DNA of 64,000 nt from Tubulanus polymorphus (GCF_964204645.1 NC_134026.1:9323950-9387949); one strand, 5' to 3'; positions 5,841 to 26,794 are shown, counted from the stretch's first letter. The notes: generated from the letters alone by a model not told the origin. Numbers and translations are program-made.

Positions 5841-6071
5841 AAAGTCACGGTCTATGTTATATAAAATCAATTTTGGTGAATTCACACCAGGATGATAGAT
5901 CAAGTTTTTATATGTATGTATACTGTGACGATGACCGCATCGTCACACAAGTCATGGTCCATGTAATCTCTCCCCTCGCAAGTCATGATCCATGTACCCT
6001 TTCCCCTCGCAAGTCATGGTCCATGTACTCTATTCCCTCGCAAGTCACGGCCAATGTACTCTCTTCCCTCG
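5841..6071. repeat. 31-bp satellite array with a ~90-bp unique spacer
   Basis: Four satellite units (5948-6071) follow the spacer TATATAAAATCAATTTTGGTGAATTCACACCAGGATGATAGAT..., which recurs at 8341-8433. Confidence 0.9.
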
Positions 6072-8292
6072 TGTTACACCGCGCCTTCCGGTGTACTTTA
6101 GAATCAACAAGACCAGTGAAATGATAGACCAAGTCAGCAATTAGAATATATCGTTTTAATGTTTCAGCATTTCTTCTTTCTCAGATTTCTGCAGATTTTG
6201 TTCCTGTTACAACAAAATGATTCAACATATCAAAATCAGATAAAAGTCCAATTTTTCATTCACATCAGGTTAAAGTTCATAATTTATTCAGTCACATCGG
6301 ATAAAAGTCCACTGTCACATCATGTTAATGTCACATTAGGTAAAAGTCCATTTCGTAAAATCTCGTGGACGTATGAATAGAACGACACGATCCATGTTTA
6401 TGACGGCGGAAGTAGATCAAACTAGATAATTATATCTATTTTAAGTCAATTAAAAGTTTATACCATCTATAAATCCTGGGATTTAAGTCCCTCTATGTAA
6501 GAATAATATAATCAACACTAGAGAGTAACATGATTTTATCTATTCTATTCTACTATATTGACTGCCACAGGTTGAACACAAGACGTAATGAAATTAGTCA
6601 CGCTAGAATTTGTGTATGGAACCAATTGACGGTATTCCTCGTTAAACATTTGCGGTAAATCTGAAAGCATGAGGGTACTGTTAAATGTACTTTGGGACTG
6701 TTGAGGACCTTCCATTCTCAACGCATTCCACAGCAAAAGCTCCCTGCGTACATATCTCCCATCCGGAATTGGAATCAATACTATAACAACTAGGAATATG
6801 GATCTATTTAGACATAGATTTCGAGACACTAAGTCGTTTATTATGTAATCAGTTTGTTCAGTGATAAGTGTCAATCTAAGTATGACACCTGACACGCCTG
6901 TCTCTGCCAAACTCTGACTGTCTCAACTTATATTGTCTCTGGTTGAGACTGCTCAATTCATAGTAATCTAGTGTGAAACATATTGTACTGTCTTTGTTTT
7001 TGTTTGACTACCTTGTATGTGTATAAATGTGATGCGTAATGTGCTGAACATAGGAGATTGTATGATTGTCGACCGAGTTGGATGTCCGACTCTGGATAAA
7101 GAATGAAACTACTATATTGAATATTCTACAACGGTTGTCCGTTTGTTAATCGCCATCGAGCTACGTTCCCCTTGCAACTATGCGGAAATTTAGGTTACTA
7201 CAATACATCATAATACCTTATCCATAAAAACATCCCAAAAGGCCTACGAAGTAAGTATCGAATAGCCCATAATTGGCAAAATGGAAGATATATGAGGTCG
7301 GGCACATCTGCCACAATCTCGTTATTCATTCGTATGAAAGCTTTTGGAAATGAAGGAACCCCTCTCTCTGCATCTCTATTGCTGGATAGTGTATCTGAGT
7401 CAGATCCATGGCTAGCGGGTGACCCTGTGTGACCAAAAAGTGGGTATTTTGGGCGAAGGTATTATGGGCGTATCCCGTGTGACATACAACGGAATGAAAG
7501 TACTCACATCCCTACTAACTAGTTCTAAGGTGACTTCGCACCTACACCTCCCTAGGCTTTTCTTTAGTAAATAACTCTTAATGACTAGAACCAACCATCC
7601 CACATCAACGATAATCAACCGAACACACTACCAAACTACTAACATATTGAAACCTCTTGATAAAACAGGGTGGTCTATGGGGACTGTATGAAAACCTGAA
7701 TGTAGCGTTGCATTTCGCAAAACCACTCTCAATTTAAAATTATAAGTGCTGGGCGCACTACTCGGGGTACCACTGCCCATTTTCAACATCTTATGAAATT
7801 TGCTACTTTTTCAACTGCTGTAGAATTTTCTGCTGATCCTTGGTTGGTCTTCTAGCTGATCTCTTGTTGATTTATCTCGTTCGTTTTCGATGACCGGGTC
7901 TATCACCAGTGTTACACCACGCCTACCGGTATACTTTAAAATCAACAAGACCAGTGAAAAATAGACCAAGTCAGCAATTAGAATACATCGTTTTAATGTT
8001 TCAGAATTTTTTCTTTTTCCACTTCAACTTACAAAATATTTCTCATAATGTTTTCTCCACCAGAGAACTTGTTCAGAACTCTCCGTAACGTTCTAAATTT
8101 TGGCCCATTTATACAAATCTATCTTCCTGGTGTCAGAATTATGATTTAGTAGTTTTGGTGCTGCCCAGCCTAATCGTACAGAACCCAGGCCCCATTCGTA
8201 CTGATGTGGCAGTTTCATTTGTTCCCGTGATGGCAGTGTATTTGCTCTGGCTAGTGCCAAAGTTACTACATTTGGAAATAATCAATGATATT
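6072..8292 (-). mobile_element. LTR-like insertion inside the satellite; ~110-bp direct repeats and a PBS-like site
   Basis: 6072-6180 and 7910-8020 are near-identical and begin TGTTACACC. On the minus strand the 7910 copy ends ...GGTGTAACA and is followed by CTGGTGATAGACCCGG (TGG-starting, PBS-like). Satellite phase breaks at CCCTCG| (6071) and resumes at |CAGGTCA (8293). No gag or pol is recognisable. Confidence 0.55.
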
Positions 8293-8956
8293 CAGGTCAA
8301 GGTGCAAGTACTTTATTCCGTCGCAAGTCATGGTCCATGTTATGTAAAATCAATTTTAGTGAATTCACACCAGGATGATAGATCTAGTTTTAATATGTAT
8401 GTATACATATAATGTGACGATGACGACATCGTCCAAGTCATGGTCCATGTACTCTCTCCCCTCGCAAGTCGTGGTCCATGTACTCTCTCCCCTCGCAAGT
8501 CATTGTCCATGTACTCTCTCCCCTCGCAAGTCATGGTCCGTGTACTCTATTCGCTCGCAAGTCATGGTCAATGTACTCTCTCTCCTCGCAAAAAGTGGTC
8601 AATGTACAATCTCCCCTCGCAAATCATGGCGCATGTACTCTATTCCCTCGCAAGTCATAGTCCATGAACTCTCTTCCCTCGCAAGTCATGGTACATGTAC
8701 TCTCTACCCTCGCAAGTAATGGTCCATTTACTCTCTCCGCTTGCAAGTTATAGTCCATGTACTCTATCCCCTCGCAAGTCATGGTCCATGTACTCTCATC
8801 CCTCGCAAGTCATGGTCCATGTACTCTTATTCCATTGCAAGTTATGGTCTACATACTCTCTCCCCTCGCAAGTCATGGTCCATGTACTTTCTCCCCTCGC
8901 AAGTCATGGTCGATGTACTCTATCCGCTCGCAAGTTATGGTCCATGTACTCTCTCT
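8293..8956. repeat. 31-bp satellite array (~18 units) containing the same ~90-bp spacer
   Basis: Direct reading. The ORFs 8375-9100 are mostly repeat translations. Confidence 0.95.
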
Positions 8957-9619
8957 TTATTGTCAATGATCCGCGTTTCTTTTTTTCAAAACGCACAACA
9001 AAACGGTTCCCAGTACTTAATCTATTCAATTACTAATCGTTCGTCAATCCTTCTATCCGAAATCGACATGTTTGTTGATATTTTCCGACAACAAAATTGA
9101 TGTTTTTTTCAGTTCTGGCATACATGATGTGCGTTTTTTTTCGAACTCGCATCAAAATGGAGAGTGGTAATAGACGATCGTTTGTCATCAACCCTTACTC
9201 TCCGAAATTGATGTTTGTGGAATTAGTACTAGTTTCGCATGGGACAGTGGGTCCTTTCCCTCCAGGAACCACTCCCCAACAAAATTGGTCCATTCGTATT
9301 TTCGCCGTAGATCCTTCTCTCATGTCTTCCCACATTATGAACTTACTTTTTTATCCATTGTATCTACACCGCGCTGATTTATCCAACAACCAATAGCGAA
9401 AGAATACCATCCACGCCGTTTCTTTACCACACACGCCGGTTGGTTCTATAACGCTTTGGGTGTTTGGTTTTTATTTTTTATACTTTTTATCTTTTTTCTT
9501 TCTTCCTTTTCGATATTATGACATAACGCATATTACAACAAGTACGAGTGATTTTTTTCCCGTCAGAAACATTTTTTTAGATAGTTTCCCCCACTAACCA
9601 CCTAGTACGTGCGTATACA

Positions 9620-10139: not shown

Positions 10140-10659
10140 TTAATCTCCACCGGAGTTTTTAATTTCGAACAACCCGCTCGAACCAAATCCGCTCACAGAT
10201 CGTTGTGTATCTTCGAGATTCTCGCAGACAACCATTTCTTGCGACTACGGTAACTCGTTTTTTGTACGCCAATCCCGAACGACCGCATAATTTCCCATAA
10301 TAACCGGCTTTCGGTATTTCGCAATCGAAACCGGCATTGATTAACCGTTTTTCCGTCGGTGCTATCGTTGTCGTTTCGACAGAGTGAATATCGATACCAG
10401 CCGTATCAGTTTGATGCTTTTACCGGAACTCGGCGTCCGGGTCAGTATTTTCAATATGATTGGTGTCTACATTTTCAATGATCGCGTGAAGATGTCGAAC
10501 CTCTGTTTCCTCGCGATGTTACAGTATATTTTCCAGTTTAACATTTCTAATTTATTCCCAGTCGAAGGTGAATTTTTTCCGAACGTTCTTTCGACAAATT
10601 TGTTCACGTATGTATCTTTATCGGAGACTTTTTCCTAACGTTTTGGCTACTTCCTCCAT
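10140..10659 (-). pseudogene. dut: Trimeric dUTPase pseudogene (absent from ORF track)
   Basis: Manual translation gives TAGIDIHSVETTTIAPTEKRLINAGFDCEIPKAGYYGKLCGRSGLAYKKRVTVVA (motif 1 AGxD, motif 2 RSG). A shifted frame then gives EMVVCENLEDTQRSVSGFGSSG (motif 5). Motifs 3-4 are deleted and the upstream frame has several stops. Intronless. Confidence 0.85.
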
Positions 10660-11462: not shown

Positions 11463-14105
11463 TCAAGGTCTCGACAACAACGAGAGATAGAGTAAATTGA
11501 TGCCCCTCTGGGGTACCAATGGATTCGGAACACTAGGTGGCGAAGGAATCTGTGGGGATATTGCCGGAATGTTCCTATTAGTGGCAGCTTCGTGAGCCGC
11601 CACCTCGGCCTCCCAGTCACTATCATCGTTCCTGCGGAGCCTTCCAAGGCTTCGTGCCTTTTTCGCGGCCGGATCCCTCAGGAAATCCGCAATGCCTTTG
11701 ACAGGAATCCTCGCTCCATTAAATTCTATCCAGACGAACTGGCAAAAATCATCCGCTAGGATCCTCCTTACTGAACTAAATCTAAGCCACGGAATTGTGA
11801 CCTTCGAAGGCAAATCCATCACCTTCTGGTCATCTACCATAACCTCGCTGTACATCGTTAACCTAAGTAATAGCGAAAAAGGACCATACAACCCAACTAT
11901 TTCTGGATCTGGCAACATAAGACAAGAGTATTCGATTTCCGTCGGATGATATGGACAATCGCCCAACGGTATCATAACCGACTCATTAACATTACAAATT
12001 TCTAGATAAATAACACAATGTAATTCAGTTCGGTCAATACTACTCCACGGAGAGCAACATTTCAGGATCGCGCGAATCAAACGAACGATATCCATGATCA
12101 ATACCCGTACAACCAAAAAGGAACCAAAGAAAATATGACTTCCAACATGAGAATATTTGAAAGGTCAAACCGTTCAGTTACAACTTTAACCAAAACCGTT
12201 TCGTTGGTACCCTTGTCAAGGGAATCTAGCGTTAGTTCATACGATTCATTCGAGACGACGGTAAACGCCTTCGCTAGAGGCAATGAAGTCGCAACCGCCA
12301 TCATCCCCAAAACCTTCCTTGTTTTAGTGAAGATAAAAAGACACAATAGCATGTTAGCCGAAGACAGAGCGATGGCTACAATATTTAGGACACCTGGCGT
12401 ATCGGAAATGGTCCATTCAAAGTCATCGCGAGACTCGTCTGACTCTGAAGCCAAGGCATCCGCCTTCGATGCATACATAGCGGTGTCATTCTTAATGTGA
12501 TTTACCATCCTTTTAAAATCCAAAGAAAACTCTTTATCCTTATCAACTAGACCCGACCAGTTAGCCATGTTTAACTTAAAATGAGGGAGTTCCGTTTTTA
12601 TGGGATCTGTAACCGTAGTCCCCCCAAAAATATTGTTCAACTGTTCGTGGTTATAAATTTGCGATACTACTGGGAGATTCATGATATAATATTTAACAGG
12701 TGCCACATCACCCGCACTTCGTTGGCTAAGTTCAAAAGTGTTAGATGATAATCGGCACTTGCACGGCACTGATAAAAAACAAAACAGACAACTTTTTATT
12801 GCTTGGACTGGTTTCCCTGGACAGGTCCAATCCCATGTTGCTGGCTTCCCCAACATCAAGTATAAACTATCTTTAACCTGCACTGCGCCCTCAAACAATG
12901 CAGACGTCGGCTCGTACCTGATATCACACAATCGCGATACCAACTTAGGCTCGTCCCTATAAATTGCCAATGCGCAACTGGGAATATTTCGCGACTTCAT
13001 CGACATTGCAGTCGAGCAAATTTCAAATATTTGCCTGAGCATGAAGAATAGAATTTGGACGATAGCTCAGTATAAAACTGGCCATCGTCAGTTATACCAA
13101 AATAATCAGGTAACCCAGTTAACAACGTACTGCGAGTCGACGAGGAATTGCATGGTACAGGAAAAGCCATCACGTTGTATAAGCCGAAGAAGGCGTTGGT
13201 CGCGGATTAAGGAATATTGATGGTAATATATAAATTGATATTTGTTTTCGTGAAAACAATATCCTGTACCTGATAATAAAACCCTAGCTCGTTATGCTGG
13301 ATGGTGAAATCAACAAATTTGGCCTGTAACTCTTCTCGCACGTGTTGCAAGACCCTTTGTAAATCTTTCGGGGATACAAACTTCATGGGTAGATAGCCCT
13401 CTAAAAGAATCTGAGTTGCTAAAAGCCATTGTTGCGTTGTTCGTGTTAAATCGATCATGGATTGATAGTCAAGCATTTGCTTGATAGCTAGTAAAATTAA
13501 TCAATTGTAATATCCTTGGTTTTGAAAATTAACAACATCTTTTGCCAACTGGTCCATATTTCTAGAATTATTCTTTACCCCTTGACGACGTTGGCTATGC
13601 GAGCATGCGCAGACGACATATACGAAGTCAGGTCGTATTTAACCTTGCCATATTCTCCACGTCAGTGACGTGCTTCGAAAGCTTTGCGAGATCCTCATCG
13701 GTCGCTAAGCCAAAGAGGTTTTTCATAAACTTCCCCATAAACGGGGCCAAAGCTCTCTTCGGGCGTTTCAACTTGGCTATCTCGGCTTTAGTTATAGTTA
13801 CCGGAATGAGATCTTTGATCGTATCAATATCTTTGACTATCTGACCAATCAATTCGTTATGGTAATCCCTCATAGAGGACATCAAATTGGTACCGACCTT
13901 ACAAAGTTTATCCCCGCCTTTATGAAAATCACAGTCCAGAATTAAGGCTTTATATTTCGGCAAAAGGGGACTACAAAAGTGTGCTTCCACGTGCTCGCAC
14001 CATTGTCTACCACGCCGATTTTTTGAAGTAACACGCCATATCCTGGGAGTATTACGGTTTCGGTCGCTAACGATCCCTGGATAAAAATCATAACTAGTGT
14101 TGTCC
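11463..14105 (-). pseudogene. env: Envelope polyprotein: F-type class I fusion protein plus second membrane protein, frameshifted
   Basis: Pieces 13942..14124, 13628..14137, 13207..13476, 12098..13042 and 11463..12116 join up. They give a signal peptide, RPKR|ALAPFMGKFMKNLFGLA (furin site and fusion peptide), a Cys-rich region, TM, SLPLAKA|F, a second TM and a cytoplasmic domain. Colinear with the env at 20428-22944. Confidence 0.85.
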
Positions 14106-14155
14106 CTGAAAAAGTATAGGACACATTGTGAGTACAACGTAATTAGGAAATGGAA

Positions 14156-15215
14156 CTACTTCCGTCGTTTGTCCTTCTTTTGCCTCCGAAGTATCTCCAA
14201 GGACGTTTAATCAATAAAACTATCTTCGAACCCCCATGTGCTATCTTTCATGCCATAACCCTTCCATTTGGCTAGGAATTGTTCATTTCCCCCCTTATCA
14301 AAACACGATTTCAAGATCTCTTCTACTGTATGAATATCATCTTCATCTTCCAAATTATCCCCTGAATCATCGGAATCGGATTGATTTCCTTCATCCGCTT
14401 CGGGGTCAGGTAAAATTCTTTCCTATCTGATGGTAAATCGATTGGTCTGTCCCTTGATTCGATTACAATGAACTATTTTCGGAATGTCGTTACTCTTTCT
14501 CGTATGAACGAGATAATTCACTGGCGAAGTCTGCTGTAATATTTTATAAGGTCCCAAATAGTGGTGCACAAACTTCTTACAATGCCCTTTTGGGACAAAA
14601 GGGTTGTAAAGCCAAACTGATTGACCGACATGGAAATCCGGTTCCTTACTACCCCGATCATAGCCTTTCATACGTGCTTGCGCTTTATTGATATTCTGTC
14701 TAGCTATCTCGTGAACGACCTTGATCTTACTCACAACATCCTCATAATATTCTTTATCGGAACCTGTCAAATCGGGTGTATTAGAGAGCAAGGTCACATC
14801 GATCGGCAAAACTGCCTTCCTGCCATGAATCAATTCAAACGGCGAATACCCAGTGGATTCGCAAATAGACGCGTTATGAGCGAACGTGATGCTTGGAAGG
14901 AAATCTGGCCAATCTCTATGATGTTTGTATATTGAGACAGACTGTTACAGATATTTTTGTTGCCTCGCTCAACTAAACCATCCGCTTGGGGATGATATGC
15001 AGACGTTCTGATTTTAGACGCATTGCATAATTTGCATAATTCGTGTATCAATTTCGCGTTGAAATTCGCGCCTTGATCTGTTAAAAAGTTTTAAAACACG
15101 AATGTACGCAAACTATTTTATCAAGTATGACTCGAGCGATTGTGATAGCGTCGATTTCTTTTAATGCAAATGTGTGTGTCCATTTGGTTAAATATTCAGT
15201 GCACACTAATGTTAT
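14156..15215 (-). pseudogene. pol: Integrase core plus C-terminal chromodomain, frameshifted
   Basis: EYLTKW...TDQGANF...TSAYHPQADGLVERGNK (DDE core); LGPYKI; then HTVEEILKSCFDKG-NEQFLAKWKGYGMKDSTWGFEDSF (chromodomain, manual translation ~14215-14335). Confidence 0.9.
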
Positions 15216-15467
15216 TATTCGTCCAAACACATAAAGTTGCCAAATTTATGCGAAACCCTCTCAATAGTATCAATTTATCAAGTGTTTTGAAAAAAGTAAA
15301 AGATATTATATCACTTCATTAATCTAGTTTATCAAATCAGATCATAATATGTAATCACTTTCACTGATTTTGTAGTTGTATGTATGTGTAAATGTCTTTA
15401 CTAACTGTATCCGCTTATATTTATATTTGTATTTGTCATACGAGAATATTCTCTGACAATAAAGATA

Positions 15468-15520: not shown

Positions 15521-16419
15521 CTAATGTATACTGGTACTCATCGTATGATTTCTTCAAGGGCCCTGATATATCCAAAGCGTTCTTCAATATTGTATGATAG
15601 ACCGGAGGAGACGGCAAAATATCCGGTGTATCCACAGAAAATTGTTCTACGCACACGACGAAATTAAAATCAAATAACAAGTATTGTTCAATATTTACCA
15701 AAATCTATTGTGTCCGTGTATTTCTCGAGTTCCTATTTCCAGTGGAGTTCCGATTTCCAGTGAAGTTCTGACTACCAGTGCTGTTCCAATGACTTTCCGT
15801 TGTTTGTTTGTTTTTTTTTATGAGCGTATTTAATATATAGTTCGATCTCACTCAAGTAAAATGCCCGCCAGGTTCTCCACCATTTGTCACCAACGGTATC
15901 TTTCTTTTAATTTCGCTTGAGTAGTGAAAATACCACAAAACGTCCAAGAAAAAAAAACATGTCACAGCACACAGAGTTCCTGTCTTCAGTAGTACTTTAT
16001 TCAGCGAACTGATCTCAACGATCTAGATGGTTACAGCGGTCTCCCTCAACCGTCCAAGACAACTAGTATATATAGTTCACTTCTTAATTATCTAATCAAT
16101 TAACCCATTACCAAAACAGTAAAAATTGTCGTTAGCTCAACCTGCGTTGTCGTTAGCTCAACCTGCGTTGGACGAAAAACCATTCAATCTAAAGTGACGT
16201 GACGAAAAACTTGACATTTTCTCATTAATGTCTGTCTATATACGTGACATTTTCTCATTAAATTCTGACATAAAGTTTGAATTATGGTTTGCCACAACAG
16301 TGTTGTTGATCCCAAAATCCGATATTTTCACATTAATTTATGTCACAAAGTTTGAGTTATCTTTTGCAGCAGCAGTTCTATTTATGAATCGAACTGCTGT
16401 TGAAAATCAATAACATAAA

Positions 16420-16820
16420 TCAATAATACCGCTGTCCACAAAACCGAAAAAAGGTAAATCCTTCCATGTATTGTTTGTAGGATATACCGCACGAGCCGTA
16501 CTCGAGGTTCCAATTATTTAAACTTTGCAACAGCGCGTAATACCCTTCGATGTATCCTTCTGTGGCGGTTAAATCCAATACAAACGGTTCGAGCGGAACC
16601 GATTGGCCGTTTTGCTTCAAGGCGACGTTATTGATTAGGAAATTATCGAAATCGAAAGGGTTCGGGGTTCGTGTGTTTATTCCCGTTGAGCGCATCCATT
16701 TAAACCACGCCATGATGATTCGATTCGGCAAAGTTCCGCTCACCAGATTCGGCTCGGATATATCAGCACGGTTTCCATCTCTCGTGAGAAATATGTGATT
16801 TAGATTTTTACCGGAACGAA
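16420..16820 (-). pseudogene. Polinton/Maverick (adintovirus-like) double-jelly-roll major capsid protein, C-terminal fragment
   Basis: NLVSGTLPNRIIMA...NPFDFDNFLINNVALKQNGQSVPLEPF.LD....GYIEGYYALL...GISYKQYMEGFTFFRF matches the remembered Polinton MCP pattern 'G.LP.R.....AF.G...NPF.F....I.L..NG...P..P...Y..L...GI....Y..G.T.F.FD'. An alternative frame restores MDALNGNKHTNP. Confidence 0.8.
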
Positions 16821-16953
16821 CCTTAATCGAAGTTCCAGCGCGGTGGTTAGTTTGCGGCCCACCGGGATCTGGTAAATCACATTTCAAAACTAAATTGTCA
16901 CGCGAGAGGGAACGATTGTTTTCGGAAAAATTTGATTATATCGTCTATTGTAA
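16821..16953 (+). pseudogene. Polinton-type A32/IVa2-like packaging ATPase, N-terminal fragment
   Basis: Reading in frame upstream of ORF 16895 gives LIEVPARWLVCGPPGSGKSHFKTKLSRERERLFSEKFDYIVYC. Walker A is at 16856-16879, followed by the 'F....F..I.YC' motif typical of Polinton ATPases. A second, internally deleted copy (MTEAFNALIEVSA/MFSEKFDYIVFC) lies on the minus strand at 16980-17058. Confidence 0.8.
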
Positions 16954-17017
16954 AAATTTGATTATGTCGTTTATTGTTACTAACAAAAGACGATATAATC
17001 AAATTTTTCCGAAAACA
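16917..17017. repeat. Perfect 30-bp inverted repeat (fold-back junction)
   Basis: TGTTTTCGGAAAAATTTGATTATATCGTCT (16917-16946) versus its exact reverse complement at 16988-17017. The outer arms 16821-16840 and 17020-17039 match at 19/20. Confidence 0.9.
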
Positions 17018-18004
17018 TTCGCTGAAACTTCGATTAAGGCGTTGAAAGCTTCCGTCATCGTTTCGTATTTTCACTCAATTGGTCCGCGTCGACGACTCAC
17101 TCGTCGAAATAACTCGGCTACTCGCAGTAATGTACGAAATATTCCATCTTTTTATTCGCTTTCTTCCGTTTCAAAATATCGATTTGGTAGGTTTTTTCGG
17201 CGGTCGGTTTTGCGACGGCTTGTAATTCCGTTCAGTAGAAAGATCCTTCGATAAGTTCTCCGTCGAGACATTTGTAACGCGATACGTTATAGGTAGCGTC
17301 GCTCTTCGGTAGGCGATTTCGAATAGTTCTTCCGTCCGAGAAGGAAGGTAGGATTTTTCGAAAGTAATAATACATGTTTTCCATTTCATTTTTCTTTCAG
17401 ACGCTATCAAAGAAAAAACTAATAGGTGCAAGTATAAAGTTTCATTAGTCTATCACATGGGCTTTTTAGGTTTGAATACGAACAATTCTATTTCTTTTAG
17501 GTACATAAAAAAAGGAATATGCAAAACACATAGACATTATCATAGTTCAATTCTTCATGGGTGGAGAAATTTACTTGAACCAAGTAATTTACAAGACATT
17601 CGTAAAGGGAGGAGAAACCGATTAGACTATAAGAAATACGTCGAGGTATTCACTAATGGTAAGATAAATTGGTTTAGATTACGTTACACGTAAAATCTGT
17701 GGGTAGCTAACATATCGCGTTTGTAGGAATATATCAATCGTTGTCCGTCTGAGAAGAAACATTCGCTACTGGTGTTCACGCAATAAACCTTTTTACAGTT
17801 TCCAGGCGCCATTTTTTGGGTACCCGCCGGGTCCGCATTGTTGAATTTTTCGTCCTTATTCCTATTTAATATTTTTATTTCGTTCGTATCTCTGGATTGG
17901 ATAAAGATAGAAACAAAGTGAAAATATCGATGGACTCAGATGATAATTAGTTTTTTTTATTATATTACTCAATCATAAAGTTAATGCAACAATGAGCGCT
18001 CATT

Positions 18005-20293
18005 CAAAAGTTCTAGGATATCTAGTAACCGAATCGGGGCTACTTCCATGTGGCGAAAAGATAGATAAAGTTAAGAAGAATTGTGCGGTTCCCGAGAACC
18101 TTAAAACATTGAGGGGATTCTTGGGGTTAACAGGGTTTTACAGATCGTTCATCAAGGATTATGCAATTATATCTAAACCCTTTACTGCACTTTTGCAGAA
18201 AGATATCAAATATGTGTGGTCAAACGAGTGTCAAACGGCTTTTTAAACGCTAAAGGCTGCTCTTCAACCTCCGCCCATTCTCAAGTTCCCAGACTTTGAC
18301 GAACCATTTATTCTCCAAACTGATGCAAGTAATCTCGCATGTGGTATGATGTTGAGTCGGTGAGGATGGAAAGGAACACCCAATCGAGTACGCCTCAAAA
18401 CAGTTTAATAAAGCAGAATTGAATTACAACACCACACGCAAAGAATTGGCTGGTATATTATATGGAGTTCGTCATTTTAGACCATTCTTATACGGTCGAC
18501 AATTCATTATACAAACTGACCACATAAGTTTATCGTTTCTACAGAGGATGAAGAATCCTACTCCACAACTGTTGCGTATACTTGATGAATTATCCGAGTA
18601 TGATTTTCAAATTAGACATAAATCTGGTCGCATTCATGGAAATGCCGATGGTTTTAAGTAGAATGAAGTTTGACGATCCTATAGATGATTTGGCCGTCGT
18701 ATCTGAAGTAGATGTGGATTCGGTTCTCAAAGAACAAATGGAAGACAGACATTCAGCTGACATCATTAACTATTTGACTAGCGGTATATTACCGATTGAT
18801 AATAAGGACGACGCGAGAACTGTTCTACTGTCGGCCGATCAATATACACTGAATGATAAGGGGGTATTGTATCATATCCCAAGGCCCGCTAAGAACCTGA
18901 ATGGCGATTACTTCCTACAGCTTGTTGTCCCAGAGTCACTTAAATTAGACATTCTGAAATTCATGCATGATGAGCTAATTCAGGTCATTTCGGAATTCCT
19001 AAAACTTACTCAAGAATATATCAAAATAATTATTGGAAGAATATGTATAGGGATGTCAAACACTTTGTTAATAGTTGCCCTGCTTGCAATCAACGTAAGA
19101 AACCTAGTAAACCTGCACGTGCTCCAGTCCAGCCTCAGGATATCCCTGATGGACCATTTGTAAAAATTTCTGTTGATTGCGTTGGACCAATTACTAAGTC
19201 CGAAAATGGTATGACGCAAATTGTAGTTTTTGTTTGTAACTTCACACGATACTGTGAGTCATTTGCTTTCCCGGATATCACAGCACCTACGATAGCCAGG
19301 GTCATGTATGACCAAATTGTTCTCAGATATGGCTTCCCGCGTGAATTATTAAGTGACCGGGGAAGCAATTTTCTTAGTGAAATGGTCGAAGAAATTTTGA
19401 AGCGAGCAAAAATTAAACATAAAAGAACTGCGTCATTTAACCCAAAATGCAATGGCCTGTGTGAAGTGACAAACAAGTCTATAAAAACGCTCCTTTCCAT
19501 GATGATTTCTGAGAAACAAACCGATTGGACAAAATATCTAAGGGCCGCGGTATTTGAATATAGTACTAGTCCAATGAAATCGATTGCCAATTTCAGTCCA
19601 TTGTATCTGATGTTCCTTAGACATCCCAACACTCCGTCGGATAATGCATTATTGGAGCCAACTATAAACCCTGATAATTTGAATGAACACGTGCGTTTAG
19701 CTCAGAACAAATTAGAATACGTGTATAAGGTTGCTAGAGATGCACTAGGGAATGCACAATCCGATTTTAAGAAACAGTATGACAAAAAGGCCTCTGCACC
19801 TGACTATAGGGTTGGTGATCATTGTTGGGTCTTTTTCCCAAACTTTAGAAAGGGTCTTACTAGGAAATCACAGAAATGATTACGGGGTCCTTTTCAAGTT
19901 ACTAATATAATAGGGCCTTCAACGTATAAGCTTGAATGTGCTAAGACAGGTAAATACATGAAAAGTCCCGTAGCTGCGGATCGTCTGAAGCCATTTATAC
20001 ACCGTGACGATCTACCCATTGGCACTCAGCCTGACGATCATGGTGATCCCCTGGATCACGATCTTGCGACTACCGATGACGATTTAGTCGGTATACCAGA
20101 TGATGTTTATATCATTAAGGAAATACTAGGCGATAAAATTATCAATGGGAAGCGTTACTTTAAAATATGGTGGGAAGGCTATACTAGACAAGAAGCTACA
20201 TTTGAACCCGATGAAAACATCTTGAATCCTAAATTGATTGAGGACTATTTGAAGTCGAAGAAAAAAGTAAAGAAAAATTTGGGGGTTAATTAG
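18005..20293 (+). pseudogene. pol: pol (RT thumb, RNase H, integrase, chromodomain) with one stop and about 4 frameshifts
   Basis: LRGFLGLTGFYRSFIKDYA (RT); FILQTDAS, NYNTTRKELAG, TDH (RNase H); CPAC zinc motif; SVDCVGP / SDRGSNF / GLCEVTNK (D,D,E); GPF; VYIIKEILGDKIINGKRYFKIWWEGYTRQEATFEPDENI (chromodomain). Confidence 0.95.
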
Positions 20294-20304
20294 TGAGAGG
20301 TTGA

Positions 20305-20330
20305 AAGAGTTTTGTTTTCATTCTTTTAGG
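20305..20330 (+). promoter_or_regulatory. Putative splice acceptor for subgenomic env mRNA
   Basis: TTTTGTTTTCATTCTTTTAG|G (AG at 20328-20329) lies between the pol stop and the env signal-peptide region. Element 1 has an equivalent TACTTTTTCAG|G (AG at 14107-14106, minus). Confidence 0.65.
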
Positions 20331-20336
20331 TCAAAT

Positions 20337-22944
20337 ATGAAGGTTCAAATGTTACTCGTTGGTATGGTGTAGCAGTTATGATGTACCAGACAGGCGCATC
20401 CTCTAATTCAGTCGTAATGTCGTCGGGGTGGTTTTTAATAAGTTGACTGCAATTTTGAACGGGGTATCCAAGTACAGGCACACGTTTTGTATTCCGTGGC
20501 CCAAGTTTGATTTAGATAAAATAGCCGAATTACCCTGTCCTCGTCAGACTCTAAACTCACCCTATGATGGCTGCGATATGTTGAACGTTGTTATACGGAA
20601 GTTGAACCTGCAGATTGGCAAAACTCGAAAAGAACTTAACGCGAACCTCGATATCATAAAATCCCTGATACCCGTTAAGGCTAATAATTGGCGGAAACGT
20701 GCTTTAGGATTTTTTGGCAGTATTGCTAAATCACTTTTTGGCTCGGCTTCCGATGATGAGGTTCAAGCCTTGAAACAGCGTGTAGAGAAGATGGAATCAG
20801 GTTTAATAGGGATGACGGATCAGATTGTCCAGCAAGGGAAAACTTTAAATTCATTTATGAATACAACGAACAAAAGAATTGAAAATGCAATGGATGGGAT
20901 CAAACAGAATCATAATTTATTACAACAGTTCGCGGACACTTATAAGCGACAGACAGCTATCTTTCGTGGTTCTCAAAAAACTTTTACTGATAAATTATCT
21001 AGGCTTAATATATCCGTTTCTTCTTTGTCTGTTCTCATGGACAATATGGTAGATTATCAATATCGATTAGGAATAGTAGTTCGACACTCCGATGAACTGT
21101 TACAGGCAACGCAACTTCTTTTAGACGGGTTCCTGCCCATAACGATGGTGGGTCCCGAGAAAATTAAAACGGTGGTGAACCACGTTGAGAATCTTTTGAG
21201 TGATCGCTATCCGAGGTTTAAGGTCACCCATAATCACCCTAGTTTTTACTATCAAATGCGTGACATCGCTTTTACACAAACCGATCAATATCTATACGTT
21301 ACAATTGCGGTTCCGATATACAGCATAGCTGGGTTCATGGACGTTTATCACATCGATGCCTTATCAGTTCCATCTAATGCTACAAGTGCTAATACTACGA
21401 AGATTGTAGGGCTACCTCAGTACATAGCGATTACTAAGGACAGCGAGTATTATACTGAGTTTGATAGTGATTTTTCATTGTCATGCACAGGACGGGACCT
21501 TAAGTTCTGTTCGACGACTAGGTCCCTTAATTCTAGAAACAAATTATCATGCGCCTCTGCCCTTTTCTGGGATCAGCCGGACGAAGCGATGAAGCGATGT
21601 GACATTCGCTATGACGAGGCATTGCTATTTGAGGGCAGCTACGAATTGGCTGATGTTCGTTACCTTCTTTCTTCGGACGATCCGGTCTGGACGATGTATT
21701 GCTTTGACAGGCAGGTTAAATCTATCACCGGCTGTAAGCTATGTGTGATGACTGTACCATGTTTTTGCTCGATAATTGCTTCGACGTTTAGGATTCCTTA
21801 CAAATTGACTGGTTGTCAACTTGGAAAGGTTGACAATACAGTACTTCACGTAGTTAACCTGTCCGTCTTACATTCATTGTTTTCAGACAAGGCCGCTCTG
21901 AGGAAGATCCGTGGGAATGAATTAGCTACGGCTCCTTTAGTTCAATTACCAGAGTTTAAATTAGCGAAAGGGGATTGGGACTCGGTAGCAAGTAAAGAAG
22001 CGGCATATTCCACGGATCTTAAGAAGTTGACGAAAGCCCATAAAGAAAATGTCCAGCTGTTTGCTTCGAAAGCTGAAGCCCTAAAGCAGGACCTAGCCTC
22101 GGATAACATCCATAGCTACCTGTTGTCATCGCCGACGTCACTTGGTATCTTATAAGTGCCTACCATTCTCAGCGTAATTGCTATAGCCCTATCTTTATAT
22201 ATGTTCTTAACTGCGCAGTTTAACCCAGCGTCATTATTTCCGGCCGCAGCGCTTCTTGCGTCCCAAAATGTTCCTTTGGTGGGGTCAACCATTGTCCAGT
22301 CAAATAAGACTCTCACGTTTGTTGACTCCGTTAAAAGTGTACAAGATTCTCTTGGAAATGTAGAGTACGATATCTCGCTGGATACTTTTATGCTTGTAGC
22401 CGTACTGTATTGTTTAGCCCATTATATTTATGACGATGTCCGATACCTTATTCATTTAATTCGCGGTTCAAGATGCGGAGTTAATCGCTGCCATTCTCAG
22501 GTCGCGGTAGAAATTTCGAATGGGATGTCTTGCATCTTGTTGCCGTTGTTAGATATTTCAGCGTGTCCTGGAGAGGTACTGCTTTTAGGATCGCCGACTC
22601 TCCGTGGGGTTAATTGTTCTTCCCGATACCTTAAGCTGTACATTCACCTTAATTGGGTTTCAGATCTAAAGCTTATTTTCGGTAATGTTGAAATTCTAGT
22701 GCCCGATAAGGTTCGCATCAAGCCATCTGTATATAGGCAGGTTAACCAAATCATGAAGTCGAAGATTTCCTTACGACTGTACCTTAAGCATCATGACCTC
22801 TTGACGCCTATCATTGCTAAGCTCGAAGATGATCCCACTGTTCTGGTCCTTGATTCTGGTGGTCGGGGCAGTAAGAGTGATGGGTTCACTCCACTTTTGA
22901 GGGAAAATAGTATCTACCCTCCCTTGCCGAGCTACCAGCCATAA
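20337..22944 (+). CDS. env: Envelope polyprotein (F-type class I fusogen plus second membrane protein); signal peptide disrupted, one in-frame TAA at 22153-22155
   Basis: ORFs 20428..22155 and 22156..22944 are in the same frame. Features: WRKR|ALGFFGSIAKSLFGSA, heptad-like helix, Cys-rich region, TM (ILSVIAIALSLYMFL), internal signal-like segment, second TM, and a C-terminal IYPPLPSY. Confidence 0.85.
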
Positions 22945-24672: not shown

Positions 24673-24720
24673 CCTGAGGACAGGGCCTTTGCGGAAGGGG
24701 GGTATATGTGACAACGGTAT
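24673..24720 (+). other. Polypurine tract and 3' LTR start
   Basis: CCTGAGGACAGGGCCTTTGCGGAAGGGGGGTATA|TGTGACAAC, with the LTR TG at 24707. A second PPT-like motif (TTCGGGGCGAAAAT...CCAGGGGGATA) lies at 24346-24377. Confidence 0.7.
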
Positions 24721-26794
24721 TATTGAGTTTCAACAGCAGTCTCAATTCATAGGCAGTGCTGCCATCTTCTAACGATATCATGAACTATTTCGTGATAAAA
24801 CTTTCAAACTTTGCCAGCGTCAGCTTTCATATAACTTTTGTTTGTACTGAGATTGATATAGCTTTTTGTTTGTACTGAAATTGAACCTTACGACTAATGC
24901 GAGCCAGTTGCTCGTAAATATTAGCTTCTGCAAGCAACAACTGCTGATGGAGAAGATTATCCAAAGTAATGTGACATTTTAATGGGAAACTGTCACGTAT
25001 ACCATCCTTTCGTAAATATTTGCTGTTGCACGAACGAGAAATTAGTGGGTTTTGGTAATGTCGTTCGCTAATGAGATGGGTTGGGGAATTGACTATGTAT
25101 ACTGGGGTTTTAGGACCGTTTGGGGAGACCGCTGTAGACATTTAGACCGTTGTGATCAGTTCGTGTAATAAAAGCAAGGAGAGAGAGACCGATCAGAGAG
25201 GGAGGGGTATCGGAGAAGACTGGGACGAGGTGAACATTTTCTCAAATTGTAAAATTGTTATAAAAGTAGTCATTATAATGTATAAAAAAGCAATATAGTA
25301 GGGTTCAGTTGTCCGTTTGTATCTAGCTGTGTTGTAGTTATTTTCTGCCTTTGGATTATCCTACAGTCCTAGGTCATTTTCCATACAGTCGTATTCGTAT
25401 TGGTGTAGCGTTTTTTTCTGAAGGGAGAGATGAGGAAGCGGAGTTATAGTAAATCGAGGATTTTAAGAACATGCGGCATAATTCGCTTACTTCTGGAAAG
25501 GTGATTCTAGACAGAGATATAAGCAATAATATTTGGAAAACAGAGGCGAAGTAACATTTTATTTTAAATCTACCCCGGGATATAAGCAGACGTTTAAAAA
25601 CAACGCTAGGAAAATAACATCATAGGGAGAGATCACGCAATAAAAAACGTAATATACATTATAAGGAAAACGCACAGGAAAGCCGATGTTTTCGAATATC
25701 TACGCCGGAAAGTAGGAGAAAATTCGGATAGATTCGCGCGTAAAAACGTAATATTACATAAAGAAAGCGCGCGGGAAAACGACGTTTTCACAGAAATATA
25801 GCAGCCAAGGAATCGAGCGCTTCTTTAACGCAGGAAGTCCTTCTTAGGAATCCCATATATAATACTACTCTCTTTACATTCAAAATGTGCTTTAGAAATT
25901 TCAAATGTAGTGTCTCAAAGCATTTTGAATCTCCAAACCCCATACCTCTGCTGAGTATAGCAGGATAGGTAGTACTGTTGAATCGAAAAGTTTTAGTTGC
26001 AAACCAATTGGTAAGTAGAGGTTTCTACACATAGATTAATGCAAACATCGCCCTTTGAGCTTTATCGTGGAGTTCTTTCTTTCCTTTAAAAAGTTTCCTA
26101 GTCCTAAATTGAAAAATCAGTTCAAATCACTCACCGAAAGACGGAGGGCTATCTTCATCCCATCGCAGTTTGAATCTTCTTGTTTCGACCCCTGTGTTCG
26201 TGGCTTGAAATTGACGATGCATGTCAGCAGTCGATATTCTAGTACATGGTTAGTGTATAACTTAAGAAAAATAAACCCGAAATTTTGCAGTATTTTAAAA
26301 TCATTTCTTGTAGATGTTGATGTAGATTTTCCGTTTTCAGAAATTAATTCTCGATAGTTTTCGGAAAAAGGCTGGAAATCAAAGTGAGATGTTTCCCTAG
26401 TCAAAGGATTTTTCTTGGTCTCAACTAGATCCGACTTACGATAGGTTTACTGTATTTTTGCATATGGTGAATTGCACGGAATTTTATTTCCTTCTTCCTT
26501 GTCACGAATCAGCCACCATCATTCAGCCACCGAATCATTGAACTAATCATTAAATGATGTAATTTCAACGGTTACAATCCATTTATTTCATTTTCAGCGT
26601 GCATGCGTTGTAAAATACATTGAATATGATTGGGTACTATTTCGAGTGAAGCGTTCTATAACCAACCCAAAATGAATTGGGAAATGATTTTGATATTATT
26701 ATTATGTCAATTCGACATTTTGCTAACTAGATAGTCTGGTTGAAGGAAAGATGATATCCGATGCCGCCATCACATAATCATTTCATCTGTTGAA

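Follow-up and report, generated by a model that had tools for sequence, protein, structure and literature searches.

Env genes of F-type Ty3/gypsy elements from Tubulanus polymorphus and of related elements carry a conserved second membrane module with a predicted matrix-like fold

What does the env gene of a retroelement encode behind its fusion protein? The question is raised by a 64,000-nucleotide stretch of Tubulanus polymorphus DNA (GCF_964204645.1 NC_134026.1:9323950-9387949), the whole of which is called the window here. Its AT-rich, repeat-laden DNA contains two decayed Ty3/gypsy elements lying back to back and pointing apart, element A on the plus strand (env at 20337-22944) and element B on the minus strand (env at about 14170-11463). 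An earlier analysis made from the nucleotide sequence alone (the sequence-only reading) claimed that both env genes share a layout in which the F-type ectodomain and its transmembrane segment (TM1) are followed by an internal signal-like segment, a short luminal piece, a second transmembrane segment (TM2), a cytoplasmic beta domain, and a tail. The shared layout held up: both ectodomains match Pfam Baculo_F, and all quoted peptides are present in the window, at 22264 (QNVPLVGS), 22501 (VAVEISN), 22699 (VPDKVRI), and 22912 (IYPPLPSY) on the plus strand for element A and at 12289 (TSLPLAKA), 12011 (IYLEICN), 11813 (LPSKVTI), and 11492 (LYLSL) on the minus strand for element B. Our best explanation, to which we assign a probability of roughly 0.6, is that env is a polyprotein gene: behind its fusion protein it encodes a conserved second module for the membrane that signal peptidase is predicted to cleave off and that is likely a membrane-anchored matrix protein of the Borna/VP40/paramyxovirus fold. 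Coordinates are collected in Table 1.

The ectodomains of env A and env B are 31% identical over 222 residues, while their post-TM parts show a weak pairwise likeness (21%, E value of 0.002). A profile of six intact relatives, in which neither window copy was included, matched the module of A over 199 columns (E value of 1e-10) and gave a weak match to the beta domain of B (E value of 0.002). We regard the likeness between the two post-TM parts as more than chance. The post-TM frame of A matched 4 proteins among 1.84 billion (E values of 3e-8 to 4e-4). P0006 is an intact env of 784 residues whose cluster includes Mytilus records, and its C-terminal region was found in 10 proteins, itself and 9 others, among 617 candidates. 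Intact natural envs include XP_063430616.1 and XP_052064383.1. We also fetched 20 loci (1 viral and 19 metagenomic) by ectodomain patterns alone. The module followed in the TM1 frame in 15 of these and in a broken frame in one (L011); the contig ended before the module in L006, L017, and L018, and L020 was a 32-residue match only, with no module. Because the patterns were derived from module-bearing envs, this sample represents this clade. In every relative that has the beta domain, the domain follows TM2 inside env; Pfam Baculo_F was detected in three of six relative envs scanned. Open gag, pol, and env frames were present in L001/L002, L005, L010, and L014, and L001 also carries gag, a stretch resembling a long terminal repeat (LTR), and a primer-site-like stretch. 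The proposal of a second membrane module behind F was thus borne out by intact relatives, which generally continue past TM1 (15 of the 20 loci and the Mytilus proteins), and we consider the post-TM module a real, conserved feature that is kept in one reading frame in these relatives. Further searches added little: when longer proteins were sought by profile, just 2 rows came back from 7,992 candidates scored, both already known; leads from the ESM Atlas all stayed under 0.9 (clusters from arthropods, Baculo_F 14%, Monjiviricetes_fusion 28%), and a second query there gave nothing; and scans of viral contigs gave no locus in one case and the single locus L001 in the others.

L001 (1-9351), deposited in IMG/VR, is itself a gag-pol-env element that is circularly permuted and apparently complete, with a single LTR-like stretch. 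In all four intact-looking relatives (L001, L005, L010, and L014), gag and pol lie in the same frame with a single stop codon between them, which suggests read-through.

For counting, each set of near-identical sequences was represented by a single row (dropping L002, L007, L016, and most members of clusters), which left TM1 in 21 rows and the beta domain in 22, and the signal was assessed by our own simple rules for n, h, and c regions and for small residues at positions -3 and -1 of a cleavage site. In intact relatives the F ectodomain and TM1 are succeeded, in one frame, by 2 to 3 basic residues and a short hydrophobic stretch, with a (-3,-1) site some 20 residues on; next come a stub of 30 residues and TM2, and last further basic residues and a domain of 110 residues. 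The five residues past TM1 include 2 to 3 Lys/Arg and no Asp/Glu in 20 of 21 rows, with element A as the exception. A short hydrophobic stretch past TM1 was found in every row (8-residue hydropathy of 1.8 to 3.5), and TM1 and TM2 are spaced 46 to 61 residues apart. A (-3,-1) small-residue site at an offset of 17 to 24 was present in 21/21 rows, 15 of them at offset 20; shuffled sequences had it in a mean of 9.8 rows and reached 21 rows in 0 of 10,000 trials, which is no formal probability because the offset window was picked after the rows were seen and the rows are kin. Basic residues also follow TM2 in 20/20 rows where the frame continues, so that both helices are of the "positive-inside" type and a membrane crossing is needed between them. 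N-glycosylation sequons occur in the stub between the helices in 8 of the 21 rows, and Ser, Thr, and Pro are often abundant there. The marks of a polyprotein with an internal signal, namely n, h, and c regions and an in-register (-3,-1) site, are present, in agreement with the signal-like segment claimed earlier, and the layout fits an internal signal that would free, at the predicted cut, a type I protein that is mostly cytoplasmic.

Two other topologies use the same parts. In the first, nothing is cut: the hydrophobic stretch is a re-entrant anchor, and F is a three-pass protein with the matrix-like domain as its own cytoplasmic tail. This arrangement gains from the fact that no cleavage has been observed and from the short h-region and the missing basic n-region of element A, but an uncleaved anchor has no need of a (-3,-1) site kept in register in 21/21 rows at 20 to 35% identity, and a stretch of 8 to 10 residues is short for a stable helix. 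We consider it decidedly unlikely. In the second, the chain crosses the membrane only twice, TM2 runs outward, and the beta domain is a second surface or receptor-binding subunit, as N-x-S/T triplets and cysteines in several of the domains might suggest. Set against this are the basic residues past TM2 in every row where they can be read, the sequons or Ser/Thr/Pro-rich stretch between the helices, and tails with YPxL and PTAP motifs of cytoplasmic type, which together make an outward-facing domain very improbable.

We modelled a Mytilus-type module (predicted local distance difference test [pLDDT] of 82) and the window's own domain from element A (pLDDT of 89.6), whose sequences are 24% identical, and compared both with 48,161 solved chains. 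The two models have the same strand and helix order. For the Mytilus-type model, rank 1 of 48,161 was the Borna matrix protein (M) (Z of 5.7, root-mean-square deviation [rmsd] of 3.6, 98 residues aligned), followed at ranks 2 to 5 by M of Newcastle disease virus (NDV; 4.7), Marburg and Sudan VP40 (4.3), and M of respiratory syncytial virus (4.1) and at ranks 7 and 8 by Ebola VP40 and human metapneumovirus M; a second look placed Borna M at a Z of 5.7 to 6.0 and the next row at 3.1. For the window's domain, Borna M was again first (Z of 5.2, rmsd of 3.7, 95 aligned), then VP40 (4.8) and NDV M (4.6), and in a second look the top 14 rows were all Mononegavirales matrix proteins. Over both models, the first-ranked match aligned 91 to 98 of about 110 residues at a Z of 5.2 to 6.0 and an rmsd of 3.1 to 3.8, below the safe threshold. 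A four-copy complex prediction of the domain scored 0.00, with the alignment unused and the fold uncertain. According to sections of PMC3887258, the matrix fold and a four-domain assembly are common to Borna M, VP40, and paramyxovirus and pneumovirus M, and Borna M is the single-domain form closest to the ancestor. The models agree with the matrix-like cytoplasmic domain of the sequence-only reading and favour the Mononegavirales type. Because two distant sequences choose one superfamily, across four virus families and over the whole domain, we think it probable that the beta domain is homologous to this matrix fold. Since the domain sits inside env after TM2 rather than in a gene of its own for a soluble protein, it may work like M, and we do not file it as an M gene.

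The sequence-only reading had also noted, as speculation, a loose resemblance of DLPSKVTI in element B to coronavirus M. A relationship to coronavirus M or ORF3a could draw on this one short look-alike motif and on the general plan of a cytoplasmic beta sandwich after a membrane anchor, but the domain is preceded by a single helix rather than three, the motif shows no conservation across the aligned rows, and the whole-domain fold matches listed point to another family. Coronavirus M and ORF3a were not among the matches listed for both models against solved chains (50 rows), nor among those listed from BFVD and Foldseek. We consider such a relationship extremely improbable.

The models were also compared with predicted viral structures in BFVD. 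For the Mytilus-type model, the seven best rows were glycoproteins of 730 to 1230 residues from chu-like viruses (best E value of 4.6e-4), with bornavirus M at ranks 20 and 28. For the domain alone, ranks 2 to 8 were chu-like glycoproteins (E values of 0.02 to 0.07; TMq of 0.44 to 0.56, including two lower rows), and M-sized proteins of lispi-, nyami-, and bornaviruses were also matched. By taxonomy, the matched glycoproteins belong to the Jingchuvirales (Aliusviridae, Crepuscuviridae, and Chuviridae), with Mogami virus unclassified; the BFVD models include A0A7U3NVC9, A0A455LK50, A0A0B5KT86, and A0A6B9KN05. Because the matched range was not reported, we infer, rather than observe, a shared layout in the chuvirus proteins. 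In Viro3D, Aliusviridae glycoproteins are class I and long, and section 9 of that paper does not mention a matrix domain (PMC12583693); the figure legends of a chuvirus study list RdRp (RNA-dependent RNA polymerase), G, N, and hypothetical proteins and no M (PMC6932829); and carbo- and culterviruses have the gene order G-M in the section consulted of PMC13293379.

The sequence-only reading also described a Pro-rich tail with late-domain motifs, and this claim stood in part. YPxL is present in 6 of 22 rows, A among them; the tail of A is not notably Pro-rich, B lacks YPxL, and LPxY occurs in one row only. Tails of at least 25 residues were found in 8/22 rows, and six of these eight carry I/L-Y-P-x-L, in two cases with PTAP directly before it; none of 20,000 tail shuffles reached five YPxL rows. 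YPxL and PTAP are known late domains that are present in VP40, as stated in part of PMC8402826. Lack of conservation of YPxL, which the earlier reading had named as a point that would speak against it, was thus seen in the whole set, while among the eight long tails the motif is enriched. [quoted passage not shown] In the Gag proteins of four intact-looking relatives, PTAP was found in one, and YPxL, PPxY, and a myristoylation pattern in none, a sample too small to speak of complementarity between Gag and Env motifs. Only capsid-type Pfam families matched the Gag frames (three of four), which would fit the lack of a matrix domain without proving it.

Individual tails vary further. The env tail of L001 has PTAP directly before IYPTL, and the short tails of L010 (8340-8400) and L012 (2055-2109) carry two C-x-x-C-like cysteine groups instead of a late motif.

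Several observations weigh against the explanation that we prefer. The offset window of 17 to 24 was a post hoc choice made on related rows. The Z scores of 5 to 6 are lower than the 7 to 8 that the comparison tool gives as typical best values for models without a clear match, and the tool warns that a Z under 8 may reflect a common arrangement; the matrix matches have an rmsd of 3 to 4 and an identity of 4 to 15%. For the window's domain, two partial pleckstrin homology domains tied at a Z of 5.1 (42 residues aligned). Topoisomerase and Usb1 domains also aligned over 84 to 96 residues at a Z of 3.6 to 4.1. Foldseek against the PDB gave no match under an E value of 0.001, sequence profiles against PDB sequences and Pfam found no matrix protein, and BFVD searched with the domain alone gave nothing under 0.001, with a noda-like capsid at rank 1 (TMq of 0.26). 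To our knowledge, the known matrix proteins of this fold have no transmembrane anchor. As for the tail, the rows with YPxL are confined to three branches in the ectodomain tree and so represent about three independent cases; 14 of 22 rows, including all Mytilus-type proteins, have no tail motif and end at most 21 residues past the domain. P0002, the nearest ectodomain relative of A (29%, sister at 89/88), stops about 10 residues past TM1, which may reflect either damage to this copy or a lineage that lacks the module. In P0004 a single TM is followed by a long plain tail, with no module, and this single-TM tail (C-terminal 170 residues) contains PSAP and IYPSGLL, so late-like motifs are not special to the module.

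Some of these points would equally suit a different account, in which the architecture is real and the likeness to matrix proteins is convergence, the domain being an unrelated beta sandwich with an accessory role as an F chaperone, a trafficking adaptor, or an antagonist of host defence. The middling Z scores, the rmsd of 3 to 4, the missing sequence signal, and the existence of F-type relatives without the module are what convergence would predict. It would not readily explain why two models of sequences only 24% identical rank one superfamily first, with four virus families matched over the whole domain, or why fusion glycoproteins of the Jingchuvirales, a sister order, come out as the best viral matches, and we judge it rather unlikely.

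Under the preferred explanation, a polyprotein of F and a tethered matrix protein, the short hydrophobic stretch is predicted to re-enter the membrane as an internal signal. Cleavage would leave F anchored and free a type I protein with a tiny glycosylated part outside and the beta domain inside. The freed domain might then line the inner leaflet at the budding site and gather F, and the freed module could capture Gag cores and drive budding; in some lineages, YPxL and PTAP tails may bind ALIX and TSG101 and so recruit ESCRT. Such a module is a possible answer to how env-carrying Ty3/gypsy elements whose Gag shows no recognisable matrix domain acquire an envelope. More tentatively, and with the odds somewhat against it, a fusogen joined to a tethered matrix protein could be an ancient envelope module of invertebrate retrotransposons and Jingchuvirales, which would supply the missing matrix of chuviruses, account for Env-driven budding of matrix-less Ty3/gypsy cores, and possibly represent the ancestral state from which the Mononegavirales M gene split off. 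The module further suggests that F and M passed as one block, rather than a fusogen by itself, between negative-strand RNA viruses and retroelements, and it marks the C-terminal end of long chuvirus glycoproteins as a place to seek the matrix protein apparently missing from chuvirus genomes. We claim no donor or direction because the module tree is poorly resolved (6 of 19 branches starred).

Table 1. Features of elements A and B in the window, numbered from its first nucleotide.
Feature	Coordinates	Strand	Basis
Env A N-terminal signal region with start codon, disrupted by frameshifts and stops	20337..20406	+	Translations
Env A F-type ectodomain	20407..22128	+	Pfam Baculo_F, E value 5e-10; aligned with intact relatives
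Env A TM1, interrupted by in-frame stop 22153-22155	22129..22224	+	Hydropathy 2.35
Env A internal signal-like segment, predicted cut after VGS	22216..22287	+	h-region 2.25; (-3,-1) site at offset 24
Env A short predicted luminal stub, one sequon (NKT, 22303-22311)	22288..22371	+	Sequence
Env A TM2	22372..22428	+	Hydropathy 1.72; long helix at same place in Mytilus-type model
Env A beta-sandwich domain, predicted Mononegavirales matrix-like fold	22483..22821	+	Model pLDDT 89.6; Borna M Z 5.2
Env A 40-residue tail and stop codon; IYPPL (YPxL type) at 22912-22926	22822..22944	+	Sequence
Env B F-type ectodomain, many broken frames; RPKR then ALAPFMG	12398..14170	-	Pfam Baculo_F, E value 7e-5
Env B TM1 (12397-12323), signal-like segment (12325-12266, KTRK...AKA), luminal stub with two sequons, TM2 (12163-12107)	12107..12397	-	
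Env B beta domain, put into another frame by a frameshift near 12100	11697..12029	-	Aligns without large gaps; E value 0.002 to independent profile
Env B 78-residue tail, Pro-rich, without YPxL, PTAP, or PPxY	11463..11696	-	
Element A pol, decayed and 5'-truncated: RNase H-like, integrase, C-terminal chromodomain	17990..20293	+	Pfam Integrase_H2C2, rve, Chromo, E value 1.8e-8; RNase H label from translation
Polypyrimidine tract and AG directly before env A, likely splice acceptor	20300..20329	+	Sequence; GT..AG joint 17657-20329 in run X1 contigs
Element B integrase fragments, decayed	14200..15400	-	Pfam Integrase_p58_C, E value 1.6e-8
Polypurine tract and likely 3' LTR of element A	24693..25173	+	Sequence; resembles second LTR-like copy ending near AATAAA

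Both window copies are broken, a point absent from the sequence-only reading, and are therefore unable to make the full precursor. Env A has frameshifts in its first 100 bases and the in-frame stop at the start of TM1, because of which its module lies in a separate open frame; env B has many frameshifts, one of them just past TM2. The stop at 22153-22155 might be a read-through signal if other copies in the host shared it; relatives that have a single long frame speak against its conservation. Env A has a basic site, WRKR (20689-20700), that is non-canonical for furin and is followed by the fusion-peptide-like ALGFFGSIAKSLFG; the furin pattern is unmatched in A and matched in 7 of 12 other rows, with relatives carrying R/K-x-K/R-R. 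In the window copies and in relatives, pol precedes env, with an RNase H-like part and then integrase in A and integrase fragments in B; the window copies have no reverse transcriptase, and the relatives have a full pol of reverse transcriptase, RNase H, and integrase. Neither gag nor paired LTRs of the window copies were found within the 64-kb window. The likely 3' LTR of element A partially matches 15996-16413 on the minus strand.

Other stretches lie around the two elements. An LTR-like stretch at 15860-16436 on the minus strand, 78% identical over 81 bases to the 3' LTR of A, is followed by the primer-site-like TGGTGGAGAA, which we take to be of tRNA-Ala type; its ownership by element B is not established. 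Broken frames at 16423-17700 include a capsid-like frame without a Pfam match and a weak AAA match at 16799-17251, and presumably derive from a Polinton/Maverick-like capsid gene and its neighbours. A broken fragment at 10150-10550 on the minus strand translates to a GRSGLA motif and is presumably dUTPase-like. A high-copy repeat of about 220 bases with sharp ends, recognised from contig depth and loose ends, occupies 17782-18000 at the truncated 5' end of element A, and a 31-base tandem repeat forms three arrays (8-288, 5878-6127, and 8364-9017).

Sequencing contigs gave one indication that broken env A might be transcribed. In run X1 (contigs only, kind not recorded), env A is present letter for letter, and pol is thinly covered or uncovered. 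One contig set of this run contains a joint from 17657 to 20329 on the plus strand, with GT..AG ends and a textbook donor and acceptor, which connects non-element DNA lying upstream to the acceptor that directly precedes env A. It hints at a spliced transcript driven from the upstream flanking DNA, and does no more than hint, because the intervening letters are not known and one side comprises 30 bases. Runs X2 to X4 contain other copies, mostly 90 to 99% alike, and no RNA data set was listed as carrying env.

The element type is known, and the second env module appears to be new: a search of the literature, mainly open access, turned up no report of a matrix-fold domain in either a retroelement env or a chuvirus glycoprotein. 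The nearest models for its biogenesis are alphavirus E2-6K-E1, bunyavirus Gn-Gc, and flavivirus prM-E, in which a short signal behind a TM begins a further membrane protein; the downstream protein there has a large ectodomain, whereas here it would have a stub, with its bulk in the cytoplasm. Borna M and the other Mononegavirales matrix proteins are comparable in the predicted single-domain beta sandwich of equal size, but they are soluble products of separate genes, while the domain described here lies behind a TM in a retroelement glycoprotein precursor and is 4 to 15% identical to them. The Jingchuvirales, whose glycoproteins are the best BFVD matches to the env domain, are negative-strand RNA viruses without Gag.

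Among retroelements, ancient F-type errantiviruses, with a chromodomain clade in Cnidaria, Mollusca, and Annelida, were described by Chary and Hayashi (PMC13524379), whose models in the sections consulted cover only the ectodomain between signal peptide and TM. Their elements resemble those studied here in being gag-pol-env Ty3/gypsy elements with an F-type ectodomain, a basic cleavage site, and a fusion peptide, and element A shares the chromodomain after integrase; they differ in that the main text of PMC13524379, which never uses "matrix," "cytoplasmic," "budding," "ESCRT," or "late domain," does not describe a second module. A small extra transmembrane protein of a Ty3/gypsy element has been reported in the Drosophila MDG1 group, where, according to part of PMC11952523, sORF2 serves cell-to-cell spread. 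As presented there, sORF2 replaces Env and is a fusogen resembling fusion-associated small transmembrane (FAST) proteins, whereas the module described here accompanies F and carries a domain of predicted matrix-like fold.

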